This document shows, piece after piece, positions 1,204-22,961 of a DNA stretch of 64,000 bases. The translations under genes were made by a program, and so were the position numbers. The stretch is from the NCBI GenBank assembly GCA_015060065.1, contig SUZF01000008.1:19316-83315 (forward strand), read 5' to 3'. Position 1 is the stretch's first letter. Every line of letters starts with the position of its first letter. Under the pieces are notes generated by a model. The model had not been told where the DNA came from and made no database searches. It worked only from the letters and a program-made list of their open reading frames with translations. The stretch is from Rikenellaceae bacterium. Lineage in GTDB: Bacteria > Bacteroidota > Bacteroidia > Bacteroidales > Rikenellaceae.

Positions 1204-1445
1204 CGAGGGGTTGTGGGTATCCGCAAGGATGCTGCAAAATGGAAATAGTGACCTTGGGAATTTATTCACAAAAGGTCACTATTTTCGTTTTGTGTATTGT
1301 CGCAGACAACAAAACCCTCGTAATAAACCTTATACTGTCAAACTCCCCGAAACGCAGTTTCGGCTGAAAAGTTTTTGCACGCCCTGCTTTTTTCAAAAAG
1401 CGGGCAAATAAAAAAGGTTTTGCGTCGCTTTTTTCTAAAAGCGAC
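1204..1445. other. Cluster of inverted repeats (second REP-like module or structured RNA)
   Basis: 13-bp perfect IR 1243-1255/1272-1284; CCGAAAC-GCA-GTTTCGG 1347-1363; T-run/A-run hairpins at 1381-1405 and 1424-1445. Confidence 0.6.
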
Positions 1446-1461
1446 AAAGAAAAAAGGCTGC

Positions 1462-1499
1462 AAAAAAAAGCGACCATTCTCTATAAGGGAATAGTCGCT
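1462..1499 (-). terminator. Intrinsic terminator of the topA-pepC unit
   Basis: AGCGAC-ATTC...GAAT-GTCGCT stem with an A-run at 1462-1469 (U-tract on minus strand), 20 bp past the pepC stop. Confidence 0.75.
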
Positions 1500-1519
1500 C
1501 TATTATTGAAGGCGGGATT

Positions 1520-2695
1520 TTACAGGCCAAGTTTTGTGCGGATATCGCTTGGGATGGCGTTTTTATTCACCATAAACGACATCGTTTTATACTCCACGAA
1601 GGGGCGTGAGAAGTAGTAGTAGCCACCATAGGGAGGGCGCACGTCCCACGAATTTTTAACCTTAAAGTAGGGATTTCCGATTTGGTCTGTTGCCGTTCCG
1701 ATAATCACCATACCGTGGTCGTCGGTTGTCTCGTAGTTATCGTAAGCCTCTTGGCGCATCTGTTGAGTAATCTTCTTCTCTTTGCCAGGCTTGTCGAACT
1801 TGTAGAGGGCATCCTCCTTCTCCTTTGCCGACAGGCGACCCCAGCGTTCAGCCTCGGTACCGCTCATGCTGTCGAGGTCTGCTTCGGGGATGATACCGAT
1901 GGCCTTTGTGCGGCTGAAACCGCGCTCGCTGACATCTGCTGCCCACATAATCGAGTAGTCGTTGGCAAGGGCATTGTCGATTATCGACATCATCTCCACC
2001 AACGGCACGTTATAGACCGAATCCCAAGCCCAATTGTCGGGAACTTCGATAACAAACTTCGAGTAGAAGGGATGGTGCGTATAAGATGTGATATTCACAT
2101 AGTTATCGATATCGATAGGCAACGACTCGGCAAACGACTTCGGGGTGTACTCCTTACCTTTGTAGGTAAATTTCTCCGGCATAACTCCGAAGTAAGCATC
2201 GAGGATTCCGTTCAGACCGGCCTTCCACGAGGTGGTAAGTTTTCTGTTCGGGTTGCGGATAATGGCATCAACATAAGCCTTCAACACGGCATCAATCTCG
2301 TTGAAATGGGGCTTCTCGGTACCATAGTTCAGACCCGGATAGACCTCCTGTGGAACGATTCCGTAGTTGCGTATTCCGTTAGTTACATCATGGGCTGCGC
2401 CGCCTACCGCAAAGTTCAGGCTGCCATGCAGGCGAACATACTTCACAGCCTTCTCGAAGTAGATATTGCGGACAATCCACATCTCCGAAAGGTCCATCTC
2501 TTCGCCTCCGGCACGCATAATCTCGTTTTCGAGGAACGAGAGTGCCGAGAAGCACCAGCAGGTGCCGCTACGATGTTGGTCTTTGACCGAGGTGGTCTTG
2601 ACGAGTTTGCCATCGGTAAATTTATACCCCTTGTCGGCGTATGCCGAGAGCGAGAGTCCTGCCACGAGGACAAAAAGCAGGGTCAGTCGTTTCAT
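1520..2695 (-). CDS. pepC: Aminopeptidase C / C1B family cysteine peptidase with signal peptide
   Basis: QHRSGTCWCFS catalytic Cys, DDHGM His, KNSW Asn; hydrophobic N-terminus. Confidence 0.9.
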   Translation of the reverse strand: MKRLTLLFVLVAGLSLSAYADKGYKFTDGKLVKTTSVKDQHRSGTCWCFSALSFLENEIMRAGGEEMDLSEMWIVRNIYFEKAVKYVRLHGSLNFAVGGAAHDVTNGIRNYGIVPQEVYPGLNYGTEKPHFNEIDAVLKAYVDAIIRNPNRKLTTSWKAGLNGILDAYFGVMPEKFTYKGKEYTPKSFAESLPIDIDNYVNITSYTHHPFYSKFVIEVPDNWAWDSVYNVPLVEMMSIIDNALANDYSIMWAADVSERGFSRTKAIGIIPEADLDSMSGTEAERWGRLSAKEKEDALYKFDKPGKEKKITQQMRQEAYDNYETTDDHGMVIIGTATDQIGNPYFKVKNSWDVRPPYGGYYYFSRPFVEYKTMSFMVNKNAIPSDIRTKLGL

Positions 2696-4997: not shown

Positions 4998-6710
4998 CTA
5001 TTTTATCATCGTGTAGGAGAGGTTGATTTTAATCGAGGCGTTTTGCAATGCAGCATCCTCCATACCCCAAACCCTTGAATGCTTGAAGGTGTATAAATCA
5101 TACGCCTCCGGAGCGAGGTAGATTGTACGCGGGATGTACTTACCGCTCTTTGTCTTATTCTCCTCCTTTTCGTACTCCGCCTCATAGTCGAAACCTGCCT
5201 CATTATCCTTGTTGAGGAAATCGACATAGTTTTTCAGGCATTGTACATAACCCGATATATCCATTACATAACTTGCACGACTGCGGTTGAGCAGACCACC
5301 GAAGGCAAGTGCCGTATCATACGTCTTCTCGTATGTAAAATTATAGTCCGGAATGGGCGTCAGCGAGTCAAAATCGGTATATAAGCCCATACGCAGTATC
5401 GATTTATCAAGCAGAGGTGTAATCACGTCAGGCTGAATCTCCAACCAATCGTAGTTCGAGCCTTCGAGATAGACACTCATCATCGCCTGATTGATTGCCG
5501 TTTTGCTGAAATCATCCTCCGCACTAATGTTACGCAACTCCGCAAGGAAGTCATCCGAGAAGTATATCTCCAACATCGGACCACCCATACCACTGATGTA
5601 GCCCACCGTACTCTCGCTGCGTGATAGGCGATTTTCCTCTGCGCTCTTATCCTTATCGTCAGTAAGTGTGAGGTTTTCCAGCGGCGTACCCGTAAAGTCA
5701 TGCTTCACGCTGTTGATAGAGTAATTTCCAACCTTGGCGTACTTGTCATAGAAGTAGTAGTACATGTAGGTCGTATCCTTTATGAGTTTCGGCTCCTCCG
5801 GATTGCGATTACGACCCAACAGGTAGATTCCTGTTGCAGAGAAATCGACCTTATACATCGCGCCTTCCTTGTCGGCTGCGAGGTCATTCACCGGTCTGAC
5901 ATAAAGACCCTTAAACGCCTCAACCCACTTTTTGTCGTCGGTATAGACCTCCGTATCATCAGCGTATCCGTTCCAAGACTGCGTGTTGGCCGGGATAAGC
6001 ATCAACCTGCGGATAAAATCCCACGTCGGACTATCGGTTGCCAACGATACCGGCTGCATCGTCACAGCCGTAGAGGTTGTATATACACCCTCCTCCTGAT
6101 TCGGGAAGCGGAAGGTAAATAGAGGTTTACTCTGGTCGTACAACTGCTCCATATCAAAGCCGATATAGGCAACGGTATCTTTGCCGTCATCCATGGCCTC
6201 AACCAGCGACTTCGTAACCTCAAAGATCTCGTAGGTCTGGACATAGGTCGTATCGCCCGCAAAATCCTTGACCGACAAGAGCAACTGCAAAGAGTCAAAG
6301 ATGGGAAGATACCCAAAACCCTCTTCGCCTATATCGGACATAAAGAGGAAGTTGGTGGCATAGCCCGCATTGCGCTTTCCGAAAATATTGTCGAGGTCAC
6401 GCTCCACGCCCATATATCCCACTTGGAGGTTCGATGAAACGAGCGAATCCGAGCGGAAGAGACTGGTGCGGAAGGCTCGGCAATCCTTCTCGGTTACAAC
6501 AAACTTGTTCTGCTCCTTGTCAAAGATGTCCTTATAGACCTTGCCGGCAAAAAAACTCTTGAAACGAATCTGCATCTTCTGATTCTCCGGGATGATTTCA
6601 TATCCGAGCGTATTGTCGGAGGTCGTACACCCCGCAAACAGAGATATTGCCGTAATCGAAATCACGGCAACAGCATTCAGAATCTTGCGCAGATTAGCGT
6701 ATCTCTTCAT
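4998..6710 (-). CDS. DUF4270-family lipoprotein
   Basis: Lipobox LFAGC; start at ATG 6710 overlapping the upstream stop; usual Bacteroidota position after the glycogen-synthase-like gene. Confidence 0.7.
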   Translation of the reverse strand: MKRYANLRKILNAVAVISITAISLFAGCTTSDNTLGYEIIPENQKMQIRFKSFFAGKVYKDIFDKEQNKFVVTEKDCRAFRTSLFRSDSLVSSNLQVGYMGVERDLDNIFGKRNAGYATNFLFMSDIGEEGFGYLPIFDSLQLLLSVKDFAGDTTYVQTYEIFEVTKSLVEAMDDGKDTVAYIGFDMEQLYDQSKPLFTFRFPNQEEGVYTTSTAVTMQPVSLATDSPTWDFIRRLMLIPANTQSWNGYADDTEVYTDDKKWVEAFKGLYVRPVNDLAADKEGAMYKVDFSATGIYLLGRNRNPEEPKLIKDTTYMYYYFYDKYAKVGNYSINSVKHDFTGTPLENLTLTDDKDKSAEENRLSRSESTVGYISGMGGPMLEIYFSDDFLAELRNISAEDDFSKTAINQAMMSVYLEGSNYDWLEIQPDVITPLLDKSILRMGLYTDFDSLTPIPDYNFTYEKTYDTALAFGGLLNRSRASYVMDISGYVQCLKNYVDFLNKDNEAGFDYEAEYEKEENKTKSGKYIPRTIYLAPEAYDLYTFKHSRVWGMEDAALQNASIKINLSYTMIK

Positions 6711-15127: not shown

Positions 15128-15577
15128 ATGGCACGCATAAGACTTACCAAGGAGTTCTCCTTCGAATCGGCACACGCCCTCGAAGGGTATGACGGCAAGT
15201 GTCGCCACATTCACGGACACTCTTATCGCCTCTATGTCACCATTATCGGCGAGCCGATAGCGGACCCCGCCAATCCCAAGTATGGTATGGTTATGGACTT
15301 TGGCGCATTGAAGGCCCTGGTGGGCGAGGAGGTGGTCGATAGGATGGACCACGCCTTTGTGATGCGTCGCACGGAGAGTGCCGATGAGGTCAGCATGGTT
15401 TTGAGCGAAGGTTTTGGCAATGTGGTCTTGGTGGATTACCAGCCCACCTGCGAAAATATGCTCACAGACTTTGCCGCACGCATCTCGCGACGACTGCCCG
15501 AAGGCGTTGCGCTTCACTCGCTGAAAATGTACGAAACAGCCACCTCGTTTGCCGAATGGTATGCCGAGGATAATTAA
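15128..15577 (+). CDS. queD: 6-carboxytetrahydropterin synthase
   Basis: FESAHAL, CRHIHGHSY, DFGALK, PTCEN, ETATS. Confidence 0.9.
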   Translation: MARIRLTKEFSFESAHALEGYDGKCRHIHGHSYRLYVTIIGEPIADPANPKYGMVMDFGALKALVGEEVVDRMDHAFVMRRTESADEVSMVLSEGFGNVVLVDYQPTCENMLTDFAARISRRLPEGVALHSLKMYETATSFAEWYAEDN

Positions 15578-18983: not shown

Positions 18984-20381
18984 TTACTTCGCACGAACCG
19001 CTTTCGGGCTTGCCTTCGGGGTGCGGAGGTGTGCCACCGAGCAGAAACGACCCAACGTGCGATGCGCTCTGCTGCGGTTTAGAGCGCTCTTCACGGCAAC
19101 TGATGCTGTGGAGATCTCTCCCTCTGCGATGGGCATTGCGCCCGTGTAGTTCGCCTTAATCTTATTGTCAAGGGCATCTGCAAAGTTGGCTGTAATATTA
19201 TAGTTACTACCACTTGCGCTCACAGAGATTGTTCCCGACATTACCAGAGCCCAAGTTGTTGCGTACTCTCCTTCGCCTGCCATATAATAGGTCGGCAAAA
19301 TCCCTCCATCTTCGGAAAAATCTCCGGCAAACGCATCTCCGACAACATTGGTAACATCACCATTGTCATTTGCCGCATAGTCGGTAATTGCGTATTGACC
19401 CACGGGGGTTGTCGCATTTGCAGCAGACAAGCACTCGACAGCAAGTTCTTCGGTGGAGTTGTAGAGGACTACTATCCAATTCTGGGTGTTATTTTCATAG
19501 AAGTCGCCATAATAGTAGGCCTCTGCATCGGTCGGTGTAACCGTAATATCGCTCGTAAGAGTTGTAGAGTCATCCTCGCCACCGGTCGAACCCGAACCGG
19601 AGTCGTCGCCCGAACCCGACCCGCTATACGTAAATACATAGGATGTCAGAGCCGTATTGGGTGCGCCATTATAACCGAATGCATAAACCGTGTAAGACTC
19701 ACCAGCGGTAAGATATCCGCTATAATCGTAGGTATCGACACCCGAAACAAGATAATACGAAAGTGTTCCTTTCCTCTGGGAAATAAGGTCATTCATGATG
19801 TACGCATCGCTCTCGCCTGCATAAGAGTCGCTCGGCACAACATCCCAGAAATATTGGTCGTTGTTCGAGGGAGTAATCGTAATTGTACCTCCATCTACGC
19901 TGATAGCAAAGGTGTTGTTCGAAGCGACCGCCTTCTCGGTATGGAAACCTTTGAGGGCAAGTTTTGTAACCGGATTGAGCCTTGAATCCACTCCAAAAGC
20001 GAAAATGTAATAATTGGTGTCGGGGGTCAGTTCATTTTGGTATGTGTAAGAGTCTGTTCCGACCGAGATGCTCGACACGGGCGTTGTACCCTGCGACTCA
20101 CACCACGCTTTCAGGTGGTTGATTCGACCCTTCATAAACTCCATATCACTATTGGAGGCTGCATACACCGACTTTTCAACCTTATCAAAATAGTACAAAG
20201 CCGTAACATCGCTCGGAGTGACCTCAACCGTAGCACTAACAGCAGAGATATCGCTGACCTTGATGCTGAATGTCATGTCCGAAAGACCGGAGCCACCATT
20301 GTTGTCACCACTCTTGTCGCAACTCACTGCAAAGAGAGCGACCATGGCAAATATTGCCACGAAAAGATTTCTAAATTTCAT
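18984..20381 (-). CDS. Surface lipoprotein with two FN3/Ig-like repeats, Gly/Ser linker and C-terminal beta domain
   Basis: MKFRNLFVAIFAMVALFAVS-C lipobox; repeats TFSIKVS..VTPS..YYF..LTPDTNYYIFAFG and TFAISV..ITPS..QYFW..LTAGESYTVYAFG; true start 20381, not 20702. Confidence 0.75.
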   Translation of the reverse strand: MKFRNLFVAIFAMVALFAVSCDKSGDNNGGSGLSDMTFSIKVSDISAVSATVEVTPSDVTALYYFDKVEKSVYAASNSDMEFMKGRINHLKAWCESQGTTPVSSISVGTDSYTYQNELTPDTNYYIFAFGVDSRLNPVTKLALKGFHTEKAVASNNTFAISVDGGTITITPSNNDQYFWDVVPSDSYAGESDAYIMNDLISQRKGTLSYYLVSGVDTYDYSGYLTAGESYTVYAFGYNGAPNTALTSYVFTYSGSGSGDDSGSGSTGGEDDSTTLTSDITVTPTDAEAYYYGDFYENNTQNWIVVLYNSTEELAVECLSAANATTPVGQYAITDYAANDNGDVTNVVGDAFAGDFSEDGGILPTYYMAGEGEYATTWALVMSGTISVSASGSNYNITANFADALDNKIKANYTGAMPIAEGEISTASVAVKSALNRSRAHRTLGRFCSVAHLRTPKASPKAVRAK

Positions 20382-20409
20382 ATTTGTTGATTCTTTGATA
20401 AACACATCG

Positions 20410-20533
20410 CAAATATATGTATAATATCGAAAAAATATGCACTCGCAGTGGTAAAATTGGTCATTTGAGGTTATTTTCATCACTTTGAGGGGTGTTATCC
20501 GGTTGTGTAATTCGGAAAATAGTTCTATCTTTG
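20410..20533. promoter_or_regulatory. Divergent promoters for the lipoprotein (minus) and tRNA-Ser (plus)
   Basis: TATATTTG minus at 20410-20417; TATCTTTG plus at 20526-20533. Confidence 0.65.
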
Positions 20534-20546
20534 CCACACGAAAAGA

Positions 20547-20634
20547 GGAGAGGTGCAGGAGTGGTTGAACTGGCCCGCCTGGAAAGCGAGTAAACGTCAA
20601 AAACGTTTCAGGGGTTCGAATCCCCTTCTCTCCG
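20547..20634 (+). tRNA. tRNA-Ser(GGA), CCA not encoded
   Basis: Acceptor GGAGAGG/TCTCTCC, D-loop GAGTGG, anticodon loop CT-GGA-AA, long variable arm AAACGT-CAAAA-ACGTTT, T-loop GTTCGAATC. Confidence 0.96.
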
Positions 20635-20652
20635 CAAAGAACAAACGAAGCA

Positions 20653-20686
20653 AAAAGGTGTCGAGAATTCGACACCTTTTGTTTTT
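20653..20686 (+). terminator. tRNA terminator
   Basis: AAAAGGTGTCGA-GAAT-TCGACACCTTTT followed by GTTTTT. Confidence 0.8.
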
Positions 20687-20731
20687 GGATAGTATGGCGC
20701 AAATTTATTTGCAGACATAGTAGCCAAAAAC

Positions 20732-21080
20732 AAAAATAGTTGATTTATCAACTTTTTGCGTAGTGCAGTTCTTTGCAAGGGCCTCCGTGGCAAGCGGAGG
20801 GGAAAAACGAGCGACGCGATGCGGCAGCAGAGCATAGCGAAGTTAATCCCTCTCCAAAAAAAACTGTAAGTTTTGGGGACGCAAAAAATAGTTGATTTAT
20901 CAACTTTTTGCGCAGTGCAGTTCTTTGCAAGGGCCCCACCGGCGAGGTGAGGGGAAAGACGCAGTAAAGCGAAGCGGCTGCGTCAATCCCGCCAAGTCCG
21001 ATTTTATATCCGAGATTTCGTGAGGGGAAAAACGAGCGGTGCGATGCGGCAGCAGAGCATAGCGAAGTTAATCCCCCTCT
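20732..21080 (+). repeat. tRNA-linked direct repeats
   Basis: 52-bp unit at 20732-20783 and 20884-20935 (1 mismatch); 59-bp unit at 20797-20855 and 21022-21080; related unit 20949-20993; each GAGGGG...AATCCC. Confidence 0.85.
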
Positions 21081-21098
21081 ATCAATTAGAATCTGAAT

Positions 21099-21275
21099 GG
21101 GGGGGGGTACTAGGGAATATGGGGGCGCAATCGGAGATTGCTTATGGGGAAGATGGGTTAAATAAGTTAAATAAGTTAGATGGGGAGTTTTTACTTACCC
21201 TAAACTCCCTAAACTCCCTAATTTCCCCATTATCAATTCTCAATTATCAATTGTCAATTATCAATTCCCCATACC
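21099..21275. repeat. Modular repeat, diverged short copy D
   Basis: G9 run, GGGGGC-GCAATC-GGA-GATTGC-TTATGGGGA module, CCCTAAACT 9-mers, AATTRTC heptamers 21229-21266. Confidence 0.8.
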
Positions 21276-21407
21276 CCCCACGCCCGAAAAAGATATTACA
21301 AAACCAACGCCCAAACAGACAAATTTATCATCTTTGAAAAAATCTTTATATCTTTGTCGATGCAGAGGGGCTGACACGGATGTCCAAAGGCTCTTCTGTT
21401 CGAAATT

Positions 21408-22961
21408 ATGCCACAAACACTAACACTTACACTCACTCCCAAGCAGGCTTCGGATGCTGCGACCTACACATCGCTGGCAGCACGTCGGTTGGGTATCAGC
21501 GACAGGCAGGTGGCTTTGGTGCGCGTGGTAAAACGCTCGATAGATGCACGCAGGGGTCGCCCGAAGGTCAATCTCTCGCTCGAAATTTACATCGACAATG
21601 AGCCTCAACCCGCACCCATACATTTCGACTATCCGTCGGTCGTTGGTAAGCCCGAAGTAGTTGTTGTCGGTTCGGGTCCCGCGGGTCTTTTTGCATCGCT
21701 TCGCCTTATCGAACTCGGATTGCGACCTATAATGCTTGAACGAGGGAAAGAGGTGCTTCCCCGCAAGCGTGATGTGGCACAAATCAACCGTAACGGAGAG
21801 ATTAACCCCGACTCGAACTACGCCTTTGGCGAGGGTGGAGCCGGCACCTTCTCGGACGGCAAACTCTTCACTCGCAGCAAGAAGCGAGGCGACTACAACA
21901 AAGCGTTGCAGACACTTGTATTTCACGGTGCATCTCCGGAGATTCTCTACGAGGCTCATCCTCACATCGGCTCCGACAAGTTACCACGCATAATCTCGTC
22001 TATATGTCAAACCATCCGCGAGGCGGGCGGTGAGGTGTTATTCGAGCATCGCGTAACCGATTTTGTGGTACGCAATGGAGTAGTGAGGGGTGTGCGTTGC
22101 GGAGATACACTTATCGAGGCCGATGCGGTAGTGATCGCTACGGGACACTCGGCAGACGATATCTACTTTTTATTGCACGATGCCGGCATAAGACTCGAAG
22201 CCAAGCCCTTCGCTATGGGTGTCCGCATCGAGCATCCGCAGGCTCTGATAAACTCTATTCAGTACCATAACTCCGACGAGATGGAGTATCTGCCCTCGGC
22301 ATCGTACTCGCTTGTTTCGCAGGAGAATGGGCGCGGAGTATATTCTTTCTGCATGTGTCCGGGCGGTTTTATGGTGCCGGCAATGACCAACCCCTCACAA
22401 GCGGTCATAAACGGAATGTCGCCCAGCGAGCGCAACTCCCCCTACGCCAACTCCGGACTTGTTACCGAGGTACGCCTATCGGATTTTGACTATCTGCGCA
22501 AGGAGTATGGCGAGTTGGCGGGTCTGGCGTTTCGTCGTGAGGTCGAGCAGGCTGCCCGTCGATTTGGAGGAGAGCATCAGGTAGCCCCCGCACAGCGCGT
22601 GGCAGATTTTGTAAGTGGCAGAGAGAGCAAGACCCTCCCCAAGGTATCGTACATCCCCGGAGTGGTACCATCGCATTTCAAGGAGTGGATGCCCGCATTT
22701 ATGTCGCAGGCCCTGCGCTCCGGCATCGCCACCTTCGGACGTCGTATGCATGGCTTCCTGACTAACGATGCGGTGGTTGTCGGTGTCGAATCGCGCACAT
22801 CGACCCCCGTGCGCATACCTCGCCACCCCGAAACACTGATGCACGAAGAGGTGGCAGGTCTCTTCCCTGCCGGCGAAGGAGCCGGCTATGCCGGAGGTAT
22901 AATCTCGGCAGCACTCGACGGAGAGCGCGTAGCCGAAGCGGTTAGAAAATATGTGAAATAG
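21408..22961 (+). CDS. NAD(P)/FAD-dependent oxidoreductase (YhiN/HI0933-like FAD-binding family)
   Basis: VVGSGPAGLF, FGEGGAGTFSDGKL, HPHIGSD, FCMCPGG, GEGAGYAGGIISAALDG; -7 box at 21349-21356. Confidence 0.88.
   Translation: MPQTLTLTLTPKQASDAATYTSLAARRLGISDRQVALVRVVKRSIDARRGRPKVNLSLEIYIDNEPQPAPIHFDYPSVVGKPEVVVVGSGPAGLFASLRLIELGLRPIMLERGKEVLPRKRDVAQINRNGEINPDSNYAFGEGGAGTFSDGKLFTRSKKRGDYNKALQTLVFHGASPEILYEAHPHIGSDKLPRIISSICQTIREAGGEVLFEHRVTDFVVRNGVVRGVRCGDTLIEADAVVIATGHSADDIYFLLHDAGIRLEAKPFAMGVRIEHPQALINSIQYHNSDEMEYLPSASYSLVSQENGRGVYSFCMCPGGFMVPAMTNPSQAVINGMSPSERNSPYANSGLVTEVRLSDFDYLRKEYGELAGLAFRREVEQAARRFGGEHQVAPAQRVADFVSGRESKTLPKVSYIPGVVPSHFKEWMPAFMSQALRSGIATFGRRMHGFLTNDAVVVGVESRTSTPVRIPRHPETLMHEEVAGLFPAGEGAGYAGGIISAALDGERVAEAVRKYVK

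Follow-up and report, generated by a model that had tools for sequence, protein, structure and literature searches.

Structured repeat units behind a tRNA-Ser gene of a Rikenellaceae bacterium and their likeness to tRNA-linked repeats

What are the three short repeats that follow a tRNA-Ser gene in this Rikenellaceae genome, each resembling the T-arm and acceptor end of a tRNA with a hairpin in place of the T-loop, and how did they come to stand there? The stretch of DNA analyzed here (the window) comprises 64,000 nucleotides (nt) of contig SUZF01000008.1, referred to as C11, from a metagenome-assembled genome (MAG) of 1.86 Mb in 37 contigs; coordinates given without a contig name are those of the window. 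A sequence-only reading had placed three GAGGGG...AATCCC units behind the tRNA, and all three were recovered there (20797-20855, 20949-20993 and 21022-21080), with the same composite also present behind other tRNA genes of this genome and of relatives, far beyond what chance would give. The units are the right-hand modules of a non-coding element of ~200 nt, here named E1, which is gene-less, highly structured and located directly 3' of a tRNA gene. The repeat unit described earlier is therefore real, but it represents only the right-hand module of a longer element that carries its own terminator. We hold it probable, with some reservation, that the E1 units are miniature elements of the tRNA-linked repeat (TLR) type, non-autonomous and inserted by a process directed at the T-loop, and that the array in the window is a mosaic of such elements.

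Insertion at the T-loop and change of host

The sequence-only reading had proposed a search of other tRNA loci for the same units, and this search was positive across both the genome and the genus. E1 is found behind at least 10 of the 39 tRNA genes of the genome; besides Ser(GGA), its hosts are two tRNA-Val(UAC) genes and those for Ser(GCU), Ser(CGA), Glu(CUC), His, Pro(UGG), Pro(CGG) and Pro(GGG), and the element always lies on the tRNA's own strand. A covariance model built on the right-hand module of E1 (R1) gave matches in 77 of 121 sampled genomes of the genus, with 1-10 copies each, and the host range across the family comprises tRNAs for Ser (four anticodons), His, Val, Glu(CUC), Arg(UCU) and Pro. 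A same-strand tRNA gene lies 90-790 nt upstream at 26 of 29 loci of relatives, at 70 of the 90 R1 hits that were fetched (there 90-770 nt) and at 70 of the 87 motif hits in MAGs named Alistipes or Rikenellaceae, most of the remaining sites being cut by contig ends. In a scan of species-representative genomes with a 20-nt motif, all hits came from Alistipes sp., Rikenellaceae and one "Bacteroidetes bacterium" MAG, the majority of them of ruminant-gut origin, and a DNA search gave no match in 16 other families of the order.

The presence of E1 depends on the T-loop of the host. It occurs at 10 of the 16 tRNAs of the genome with AATCC at positions 58-62 and at none of the 23 others (Fisher exact, ~1e-5), the T-loop and T-stem of its hosts reading ...TTCG|AATCC.... 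Besides, in 34 of 70 units the tail repeats 17 nt of the adjacent tRNA locus without mismatch from A58 onwards (16 nt from the tRNA itself and one more, as the genes do not encode CCA). The E1 family thus shows the tail identity that is typical of TLRs, with only 8-11-nt remnants of other tRNAs kept in the window. These properties bear on the possibility that the T-arm likeness is incidental and that the units are intergenic hairpin repeats, comparable to repetitive extragenic palindromes (REP) or bacterial interspersed mosaic elements (BIME), housed in the permissive, terminator-rich gaps behind tRNA genes. A mosaic foldback repeat located behind genes is indeed also present in the genome (window 21081-21283), and unit-like modules occur away from tRNAs (C28:7450-7830; locus L035, with an outer stem CTACCT/AGGTAG). 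We nevertheless regard an incidental likeness as very improbable, as the fixed orientation and position speak against it and it is contradicted, and largely refuted, by the exact tail copies in the 34 units, by the restriction to AATCC tRNAs and by the covariation of the 5' strand of the unit with the host T-stem, described below.

For the empty site, tRNA-Glu(CUC) joined to the flank that lies past the second tail was searched across the genus. In two genomes, G084 (94%) and G091 (86% identity over the junction), tRNA-Glu(CUC) is joined directly to the native terminator, and the filled site of the source genome holds a 202-nt E1 followed by a second AATCCCCTATCCACTACAAA. Because of this empty site, the comparison of the loci shows E1 to be an insertion, accompanied by a target duplication of 16-21 nt.

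The copies behind Pro(UGG), Pro(CGG) and Pro(GGG) of the genome are 89-95% identical, and each is flanked by the tail of its own gene (AATCCTGGTACCCCGAC, AATCCAGTCTCCCCGAC and AATCCAGTCATCCCGAC, respectively), these tails differing at ~4 of 17 positions. Near-identical copies with local tails indicate that the duplication is made from the target and is not carried by the element. Across genomes, the median element identity is 0.68 for copies on the same host and 0.69 for copies on different hosts, and the Pro(UGG) copy of genome G135 is nearer to the Glu copy of the source genome than to the copy behind Pro(UGG) there. When 27 copies on 9 hosts are placed in a maximum-likelihood tree, 15 host changes are required, compared with 18-20 when labels are shuffled, and well-supported clades mix Glu, His, Ser and Pro hosts. 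Together, these comparisons show that the E1 family has switched host tRNA many times, and that both flanking copies are then those of the new host. Since local tails are present on both sides, a target-duplicating process is favored, either by staggered breaks or by target-primed copying.

The same tails help to judge whether the units are cis-mobilizable remains of attachment sites (attL...attR that have lost their interior) from tyrosine-integrase islands in the tRNA T-loop, where an island brings a replacement 3' end and arrays form by tandem accretion. T-loop-type integrases are recognized by direct repeats of a tRNA 3' part that begin in the T-loop, and different small elements (E2, described in the last section, then E1) are stacked behind one tRNA. 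A 407-aa integrase adjoins tRNA-Gly on contig C17, and larger islands do use these tRNAs, as with the tRNA-Val fragment from the anticodon loop at locus L064. On the other hand, conservative recombination predicts a chimeric tRNA or a foreign tail, whereas near-identical elements have local tails on both sides, and a fixed tail of the attP type is found neither at the three tRNA-Pro genes, with their local tails, nor across the 15 host changes. In addition, no linked integrase or gene-bearing version of E1 was found at ~170 sites, the integrase island on C17 has neither a unit nor a tRNA-Gly tail repeat, and the T-stem partner would lie 25-45 nt from the crossover region, unlike in a core site with a 6-8-bp overlap. 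We therefore give such an origin only a small chance.

The search for an enzyme covered 80 loci of 8 kb, in which no family of recombinase, transposase or reverse transcriptase recurred, only housekeeping families being recurrent. Sites without a nearby tRNA were considered as gene-bearing master copies and rejected, since they proved to be contig ends, the tRNA fragment of L064, foreign DNA (between tRNA and E1 in L091) or solo or inverted units (L135 and L140). The genome has three tyrosine recombinase genes (PF00589), none of which adjoins a unit. A link to the sole island-type integrase (C17:10680-11903, reverse strand) was likewise rejected, as this gene is at tRNA-Gly, without a unit; it lies downstream of a tandem pair of tRNA-Gly(GCC) genes, 294 nt from the second, and is probably part of an integrated island of its own, whose genes are at 7.8-10.5 kb, and the assembly has no repeat of the tRNA-Gly tail. 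E1 does not fit a miniature inverted-repeat transposable element derived from a DDE transposon, which would have terminal inverted repeats and a short duplication of fixed length; its ends AAAGAAC... and ...GCAGTAGCC are not inverted repeats, and its duplication measures 16-21 nt. E1 is non-autonomous and encodes no enzyme in cis.

Anatomy of E1 and the array in the window

An intact copy starts with the complete tRNA, the trailer (C)AAAGAAC..CGAAGC and a terminator hairpin with a T-run, followed by a long hairpin with a GCAAAyTTrTTTGC center and an A-rich spacer. A third hairpin, small and variable (GTTGAT/ATCAAC, GGTTGC/GCAAC or AGCGGC/GCCGCT), leads into ..TTGCG..TTTGCAAGGGCC. The right-hand part consists of hairpin 4 (with a GGCGA or GGCAA loop), 4-5 bases complementary to the 3' strand of the T-stem, AAAG, a variable hairpin with GCGAAGC or GCGGAGC motifs, and AAT with the T-stem 3' strand, after which the acceptor 3' strand and the discriminator lead to the native flank. 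Hairpin 4 covaries strongly in its outer pair (UA in 14 copies, CG in 8, AU in 3 and GC in 2), and the inner GGC/GCC stem covaries as well (GC in 19 copies, AU in 9). A long-range helix joins GCAAnnnn at the left end (segment A) to nnnnTTGC after the third hairpin (segment C), with the matched variants GAAG/CTTC, GGAG/CTCC, AAAG/CTTT, GGCT/AGCC and GAAA/TTTC, and the first bases, AAAGAAC, pair with GTTCTTT in the minimum-energy fold. From these two pairings it follows that the left part is one closed domain.

The T-arm whose loop is replaced by a hairpin, as first noticed in the window, is real and tracks the T-stem of the host. Between the five bases before the insert and the five after AAT, 3.85 of 5 pair, as against 3.35 +/- 0.06 with shuffled partners, and 0 of 2000 shuffles reach the observed value, a statistic that is inflated by the kinship of the copies and that leaves four independent classes. 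These are xACGG/CCGTC (Val), xCTGG/CCAGT (Pro-GGG and some Ser-GCU), xCAGG/CCTGG (Pro-UGG) and xGGG/CCCxx. An antisense copy of the acceptor strand is absent from E1 (5.6 matches vs 5.7 in controls). The antisense arm is not made anew with each move, as the Pro(UGG) and Pro(CGG) copies share ACAGG, one mismatch from either target; it therefore looks element-borne and would have to fit its target only roughly.

Both strands of E1 fold far beyond shuffles, the mean z being -6.2 (sense) and -5.4 (antisense). In 27 of 27 copies the sense strand is the more stable, with 140 G-U pairs vs 54, and G-U exceptions in the covarying stems outnumber A-C exceptions. In terms of predicted folds, the strand signal leans towards a functional sense-strand RNA or a sense single-stranded DNA.

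The host of the array in the window is an intact tRNA-Ser(GGA), found by ARAGORN and with 43.8 bits by the Rfam tRNA model, whose 3' end reads ...CAGGGGTTCGAATCCCCTTCTCTCCG(C) and which has a Bacteroidetes-type -7 box, TATCTTTG, just 5' of it (20526-20533). The array begins at 20636 and abuts the end of the tRNA, the position in which TLRs are found. The features of the locus are as follows:

20547-20635, forward strand: tRNA-Ser(GGA), intact, host of the array
20619-20635, forward strand: segment from A58 to the tRNA 3' end, AATCCCCTTCTCTCCGC, the part duplicated at intact E1 copies (from the sequence; edge set on 70 E1 members and the empty site)
20636-20783, forward strand: left part of E1 (terminator scan; fold z = -6.7)
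20650-20657, forward strand: segment A, GCAAAAAG, paired with segment C, CTTTTTGC, at 20752-20759 (covarying variants; minimum-energy fold)
20732-20783, forward strand: 52-bp block, copy 1, with hairpin 3, segment C and GTGCAGTTCTTTGCAAGGGCC (direct repeat D1)
20784-20855, forward strand: R-unit 1 (direct repeats; fold; match to covariance model R1, G000:C11:40094-40167)
20884-20935, forward strand: 52-bp block, copy 2, a partial left part without terminator and hairpin 2 (direct repeat D1)
20936-20993, forward strand: R-unit 2 (direct repeat, R1 model match, tail match and fold)
20994-21021, forward strand: linker AAGTCCGATTTTATATCCGAGATTTCGT, a module also found ahead of R-units in relatives
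21022-21080, forward strand: R-unit 3, 95% identical to R-unit 1 (direct repeat D2; fold)
21081-21283, no strand: G-tract/C-tract foldback element (inverted repeats I5, I6 and I14)

The left part contains, in order, the trailer AAAGAAC, the terminator hairpin (20653-20680) with its T-run, a long hairpin (~20687-20725), an A-rich spacer, the palindrome hairpin (20738-20753) and the stretch through GCAAGGGCC. The same 170-nt left part lies behind tRNA-Val, Ser-GCU and Ser-CGA in the genome, with 89-94% identity. The complete first element (20636-20857) folds with -83.8 kcal/mol (z = -6.7), and in each of the three units GGGG(A) is paired with (T)CCCC around an inner hairpin (single-unit z of -2.0 to -3.0). 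R-unit 1 is composed of hairpin 4 (CTCCG-TGGCAAG-CGGAG), the T-stem 5' strand GGGG(A), an insert with a GCGAAG motif and the tRNA-tail remnant AATCCCTCTCC (20845-20855), and R-unit 2 of the hairpin CACC-GGCGA-GGTG, GGGG(A), the hairpin GACGCAG...CTGCGTC and the remnant AATCCCGCC (20985-20993). The motif TTTATATCCGAG(G/A)TT(C/T)CGTG of the linker is also found ahead of units in locus L043 and at C17:14438-14601.

The repeat finder recovered the 78-nt direct repeat D1 (20732-20809/20884-20961, 88% identical), the first 52 nt of which differ at one base between copies and include the palindrome AGTTGATTTATCAACT (20738-20753), and the 58-nt direct repeat D2 (20797-20854/21022-21079, 95% identical). 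The duplicated block with a palindrome that had been described ahead of two of the units was thereby confirmed. The copy number is also that of TLRs, with three units in the window and at least 10 tRNA loci with E1 in this genome. No integrase is located near the array, as had been stated before, the flanking genes being an open reading frame (ORF) without a Pfam family and one for a protein dependent on flavin adenine dinucleotide (FAD).

The tails of the three units point to different origins. The best matches in the genome are 8 nt, Ser-CGA/Val-like, for AATCCCTCTCC of unit 1, 9 nt of tRNA-Arg(UCU) for AATCCCGCC of unit 2, and 11 nt of Ser(GCU) for AATCCCCCTCT of unit 3 (21070-21080), after which the tail is cut by the foldback element; all three remnants fit other tRNAs better than the local Ser(GGA) tail AATCCCCTTCTCTCCGC. 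Units 2 and 3 are without the terminator part, unit 2 beginning at the third hairpin and unit 3 at the linker, and a homologue of R-unit 2 lies behind tRNA-Arg(UCU) in the relative G013 (L043). As the tails derive from other tRNAs, the array would result from duplication and recombination among copies and not from three clean insertions, and it is best described as a putative secondary mosaic of one full element and two partial ones. The earlier proposal of an array grown by insertion or duplication at a T-loop target is thus supported for the T-loop insertion with A58 duplication, as seen at the empty site, but not for three clean insertions at this locus. Short-read contigs of public runs break within the repeats of the array, and independent contigs back only two junctions, those of unit 1 with block 2 and of unit 3 with the foldback element.

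Metatranscriptome contigs cover 20554-20687, 20635-20760 and 20823-20943 (in sum, 20554-20760 and 20823-20943), with zero depth over the flanking genes, and these contigs are unstranded and shallow. They fit an explanation, akin to the processed small RNAs that the sequence-only reading had named as an alternative, in which the units serve as functional RNA modules within tRNA transcription units, processed at the spare tail by the tRNA 3'-end machinery, kept as a sponge, as a processing or decay buffer or as a regulator, and spread by duplication and gene conversion. In E. coli, RtT RNA is released from the tyrT transcript, and RrA, RrB and RrF are read-through products between two terminators that bind Hfq and CsrA (PMC8144298); every E1 has a terminator followed by structured helices with sense-strand G-U pairs. 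We consider this explanation unlikely given the presence/absence polymorphism and empty site in close relatives, the frequent decay (36 of 70 tails are imperfect), the strong terminator that precedes the unit, the low depth and lacking strand information of the RNA evidence, and a host switching with new local duplicates that is beyond duplication or conversion alone. It is nevertheless compatible with a mobile element, which can also yield RNA. The 52-bp block was also considered as a promoter and rejected, since reading of the block (GTTCTTTG) and of its relatives (GGGCTTGC or TGATTTTG) gave no consistent promoter; a -7 box TAnnTTTG lies ahead of the tRNA (20526-20533) and of the downstream gene (~21349-21356).

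Known tRNA-linked repeats and a possible mechanism

TLRs have been known from E. coli since 1978, yet no origin is accepted for them, and a function only for three 5S-linked ones (PMC8144298). The E. coli copies number 22 and are spread over ten loci, each with one to five of them, and at its 3' end the repeat reproduces the final 18-19 bp of the gene upstream (PMC8144298). The type example is the 178-bp repeats behind tyrT/tyrV that encode RtT RNA (rttR; Egan and Landy 1978 and Rudd 1999, as cited in PMC8144298). A preprint reports that mobilome coverage of the tyrT-rttR region rises under stress in E. coli (bioRxiv 10.1101/2024.07.17.603846). In the K-12 loci read here, the TLRs behind tyrV, argQ/Z/Y/V and lysT/W/Y/Z/Q begin at A58 (aatccttcccccaccacca), have the antisense arms GGGGAAGGA (Tyr), GGGAGGAT (Arg) and GAAGGAT (Lys), and contain hairpins with the GNA-type mini-hairpin motifs GCCCGAAGGGC, GACGAAGTC and GCGAAGC. 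The link to enterobacterial TLRs that the sequence-only reading had drawn is apt, as the K-12 TLRs have the same right-end plan.

Like the E. coli TLRs, E1 shares the strand of the tRNA gene right behind which it stands and is found at many loci, each with one to five copies, and like those of the Tyr, Arg and Lys genes it combines an antisense T-arm strand, a structured insert and a tail from A58. Unlike them, it starts with a strong terminator of its own, most E. coli TLRs being located between tRNA genes that are transcribed together; its antisense arm measures 4-5 nt compared with 7-9 nt, its tail is without CCA, which the genes do not encode, and an empty site and host switching are documented for E1. 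The Rfam model RF00391 (RtT) scores the E. coli Tyr and Lys TLRs with 47-138 bits; it gave no match at E <= 10 in window 20300-21500, where tRNA was the only Rfam family found, nor at E <= 0.01 in four Alistipes loci, and R1 gave no match among the E. coli TLRs. E1 belongs to the descriptive class of TLRs and not to the Rfam family RtT, there being no detectable homology in sequence or model. Within K-12, the Lys TLRs are just above the cut-off of RF00391 and have C, not A, as first tail base, the Arg TLRs are not among its matches at E <= 0.01, and the core of the Arg, Lys and Tyr TLRs (L151, L154 and L155) reads ..AGGAT-AACGTTGC-nnnn-GCAACG-GCCCGAAGGGCGAG..CGAGT-(A/C)ATCC....

The E1 family is a Bacteroidota variant of this known, unexplained kind of repeat. 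It shows the TLR plan in a phylum distant from E. coli and, as opposed to the old, fixed E. coli copies, with signs of activity, namely the empty site, near-identical copies with local duplications, the AATCC rule and an antisense arm that tracks the target. It thereby makes the origin of TLRs testable as a T-loop-directed insertion without an enzyme in cis. In practice, E1 breaks short-read assemblies at tRNA genes, and it may pass as an island attachment site or a pseudo-tRNA in annotation.

RrA, RrB and RrF lie behind 5S rRNA in rrnA, rrnB and rrnD and are processed 3 nt past the repeated tail (PMC8144298). E1 resembles these read-through products in its location between a first terminator and further structure, in the copy of the upstream stable-RNA 3' part at its end and in being structured; the E. 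coli RNAs, for their part, are linked to 5S rRNA, bind Hfq/CsrA via GGA motifs and are conserved in Enterobacterales. With the integrative elements that use the T-loop of tRNA or tmRNA genes (phages and islands with a tyrosine integrase) and with their gene-less, cis-mobilizable derivatives, E1 shares a tRNA target that is kept intact, a direct repeat of the 3' part from the T-loop and tandem stacking, and it differs from them in the absence of an integrase in cis or of a longer relative, in the local tails on both sides, in a would-be core that is split by a 25-45-nt hairpin and in its size of ~200 nt.

Casposons and clustered regularly interspaced short palindromic repeats (CRISPR), through Cas1, produce long duplications by staggered attacks, of 14-15 bp at tRNA 3' ends for some casposons and of the whole repeat in CRISPR. 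The long target duplication of E1 is alike and offers a lead, although E1 has no terminal inverted repeats and no Cas1 gene nearby. Eukaryotic short interspersed nuclear elements (SINEs) are non-autonomous, use target-primed reverse transcription and have tRNA-related ends, variable-length duplications and partial copies with the 3' module. E1 is similarly small, gene-less and structured and has such ends, duplications and partial copies, which provides a second lead, whereas its partial copies begin at recurrent module borders and not at random points. Literature searches for a described T-loop miniature element returned nothing relevant. What is new here is the evidence for a putative T-loop-directed insertion that duplicates its target, together with the AATCC rule and the short antisense arm, as deduced from sequence comparison.

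We favor the view that E1 is mobile but non-autonomous and travels as a folded single strand. This strand, either RNA or tRNA-sense single-stranded DNA, would present a T-arm look-alike and would be inserted at G57|A58 by machinery acting in trans, and the duplication would arise from staggered breaks or target-primed copying. Several points weigh against this interpretation. No transposition event, excised form or enzyme was observed, and nearly all genomes are MAGs, in which repeats are poorly assembled. The similarity of copies within a genome could reflect gene conversion and not recent movement, which conversion could mimic without explaining the first colonization of each host. Roughly half of the units have decayed or foreign tails, all three in the window among them, so that recombination among copies would be no less active than clean insertion. 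On its right side, the duplication has a blurred edge (17-21 nt) that is not fixable to the base because the native trailers and the left end of E1 look alike, both starting CAAAG-like. Finally, the strand bias is modest after dinucleotide control, the sense z being lower in 20 of 27 copies. Most tRNA genes of the genome, with or without an element, have a similar trailer, (C)AAAGA or (C)AAAAG.

A bolder proposal, which we put forward as improbable, is that TLR-type elements, those of E. coli included, constitute one cross-phylum mobile class that travels as a tRNA 3'-trailer transcript. The 5' end of the RNA would be defined by tRNA 3' processing, such that the element starts right after the tRNA, and its 3' module would fold as a T-arm look-alike that ends in AATCC plus the tRNA tail. 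A nick at G57|A58 in a gene with a like T-loop would then allow the target strand to prime copying of the RNA, and a second staggered nick past the tRNA, with A-rich microhomology, would finish the insertion. If true, this would explain the A58 duplication, the fixed orientation and the AATCC restriction, as well as the mismatched arms after a change of host and the partial copies that keep the 3' module, and TLR-type elements would be a bacterial counterpart of SINEs.

Divergent units and neighboring repeat families

Some loci depart from the common plan. At L064 (G020:C41), and also at L028 and L187, E1 is preceded by no more than the 3' half of tRNA-Val, beginning at the anticodon loop; such a fragment looks like a displaced piece from a larger island in the anticodon loop, with E1 still attached. 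At C9:67900-68290 (reverse strand), a tRNA-Met with the T-loop TTCAAGT has behind it a left part like that of E1 and then a diverged unit that ends in AAGTCTCTC, the start of that tRNA-Met's own tail, which suggests that sister families exist for tRNAs without AATCC and are missed by R1. Unit-like modules away from any tRNA comprise three to four degenerate units behind a terminator at C28:7450-7830 (reverse strand) and the unit of L035 (G016:C23), in which the outer stem CTACCT/AGGTAG stands instead of a T-stem. In L135, L110 and L109, units are followed by an inverted copy of TTTGCAAGGGCC. The units of L189 and L228, from Alistipes/Rikenellaceae MAGs, end in AATCCCGCTCTGGTAGAC and AATCCCGCTCCGGTAGAC, respectively, a tail that fits no tRNA of the genome, and ARAGORN found no tRNA upstream of these units within the fetched loci.

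The foldback element at the end of the array (TATCAATTAGAATCTGAATGGGG...CCCCATT...TCAATTATCAATT, also seen as CCCCATTxTCAATTATCAATT) is a separate repeat family outside E1, which abuts and truncates the last tail remnant. It meets the last unit at ..CTCT|ATCAATTAG, and the same junction is found behind tRNA-Val on C17 and on C7. The depth of metagenome contigs is very high at 21202-21283 within this element.

A second miniature family of ~240 nt, E2, lies between tRNA and E1, always on the tRNA side, at five loci:

C17:14698-14956, reverse strand: E2
C7, ~15312-15573, reverse strand: E2
C5, ~1440-1695, reverse strand: E2
C18, ~6413-6640, forward strand: E2
C19, ~71720-72073, reverse strand: E2, twice in tandem

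The direct repeat of E2 begins earlier in the T-loop (TTCGAATCC.., TCGAATCC.. or TTCAAATCC..). E2 has its own terminator, a GGGGG or AGGGG run that matches the host T-stem, and a left-end segment that pairs ~100 nt downstream (ATGCAGAGC/GCTCTGCAT and ATGTAAAGGC/GCCTTTACAT). The E2-E2-E1 array with which C19 ends has copies of the tRNA-Pro(CGG) tail on its borders, and tRNA-Pro(CGG) itself is located at the start of C3 (complement 100-175); the end of C19 and the start of C3 probably join there, the assembly having broken within the repeats.

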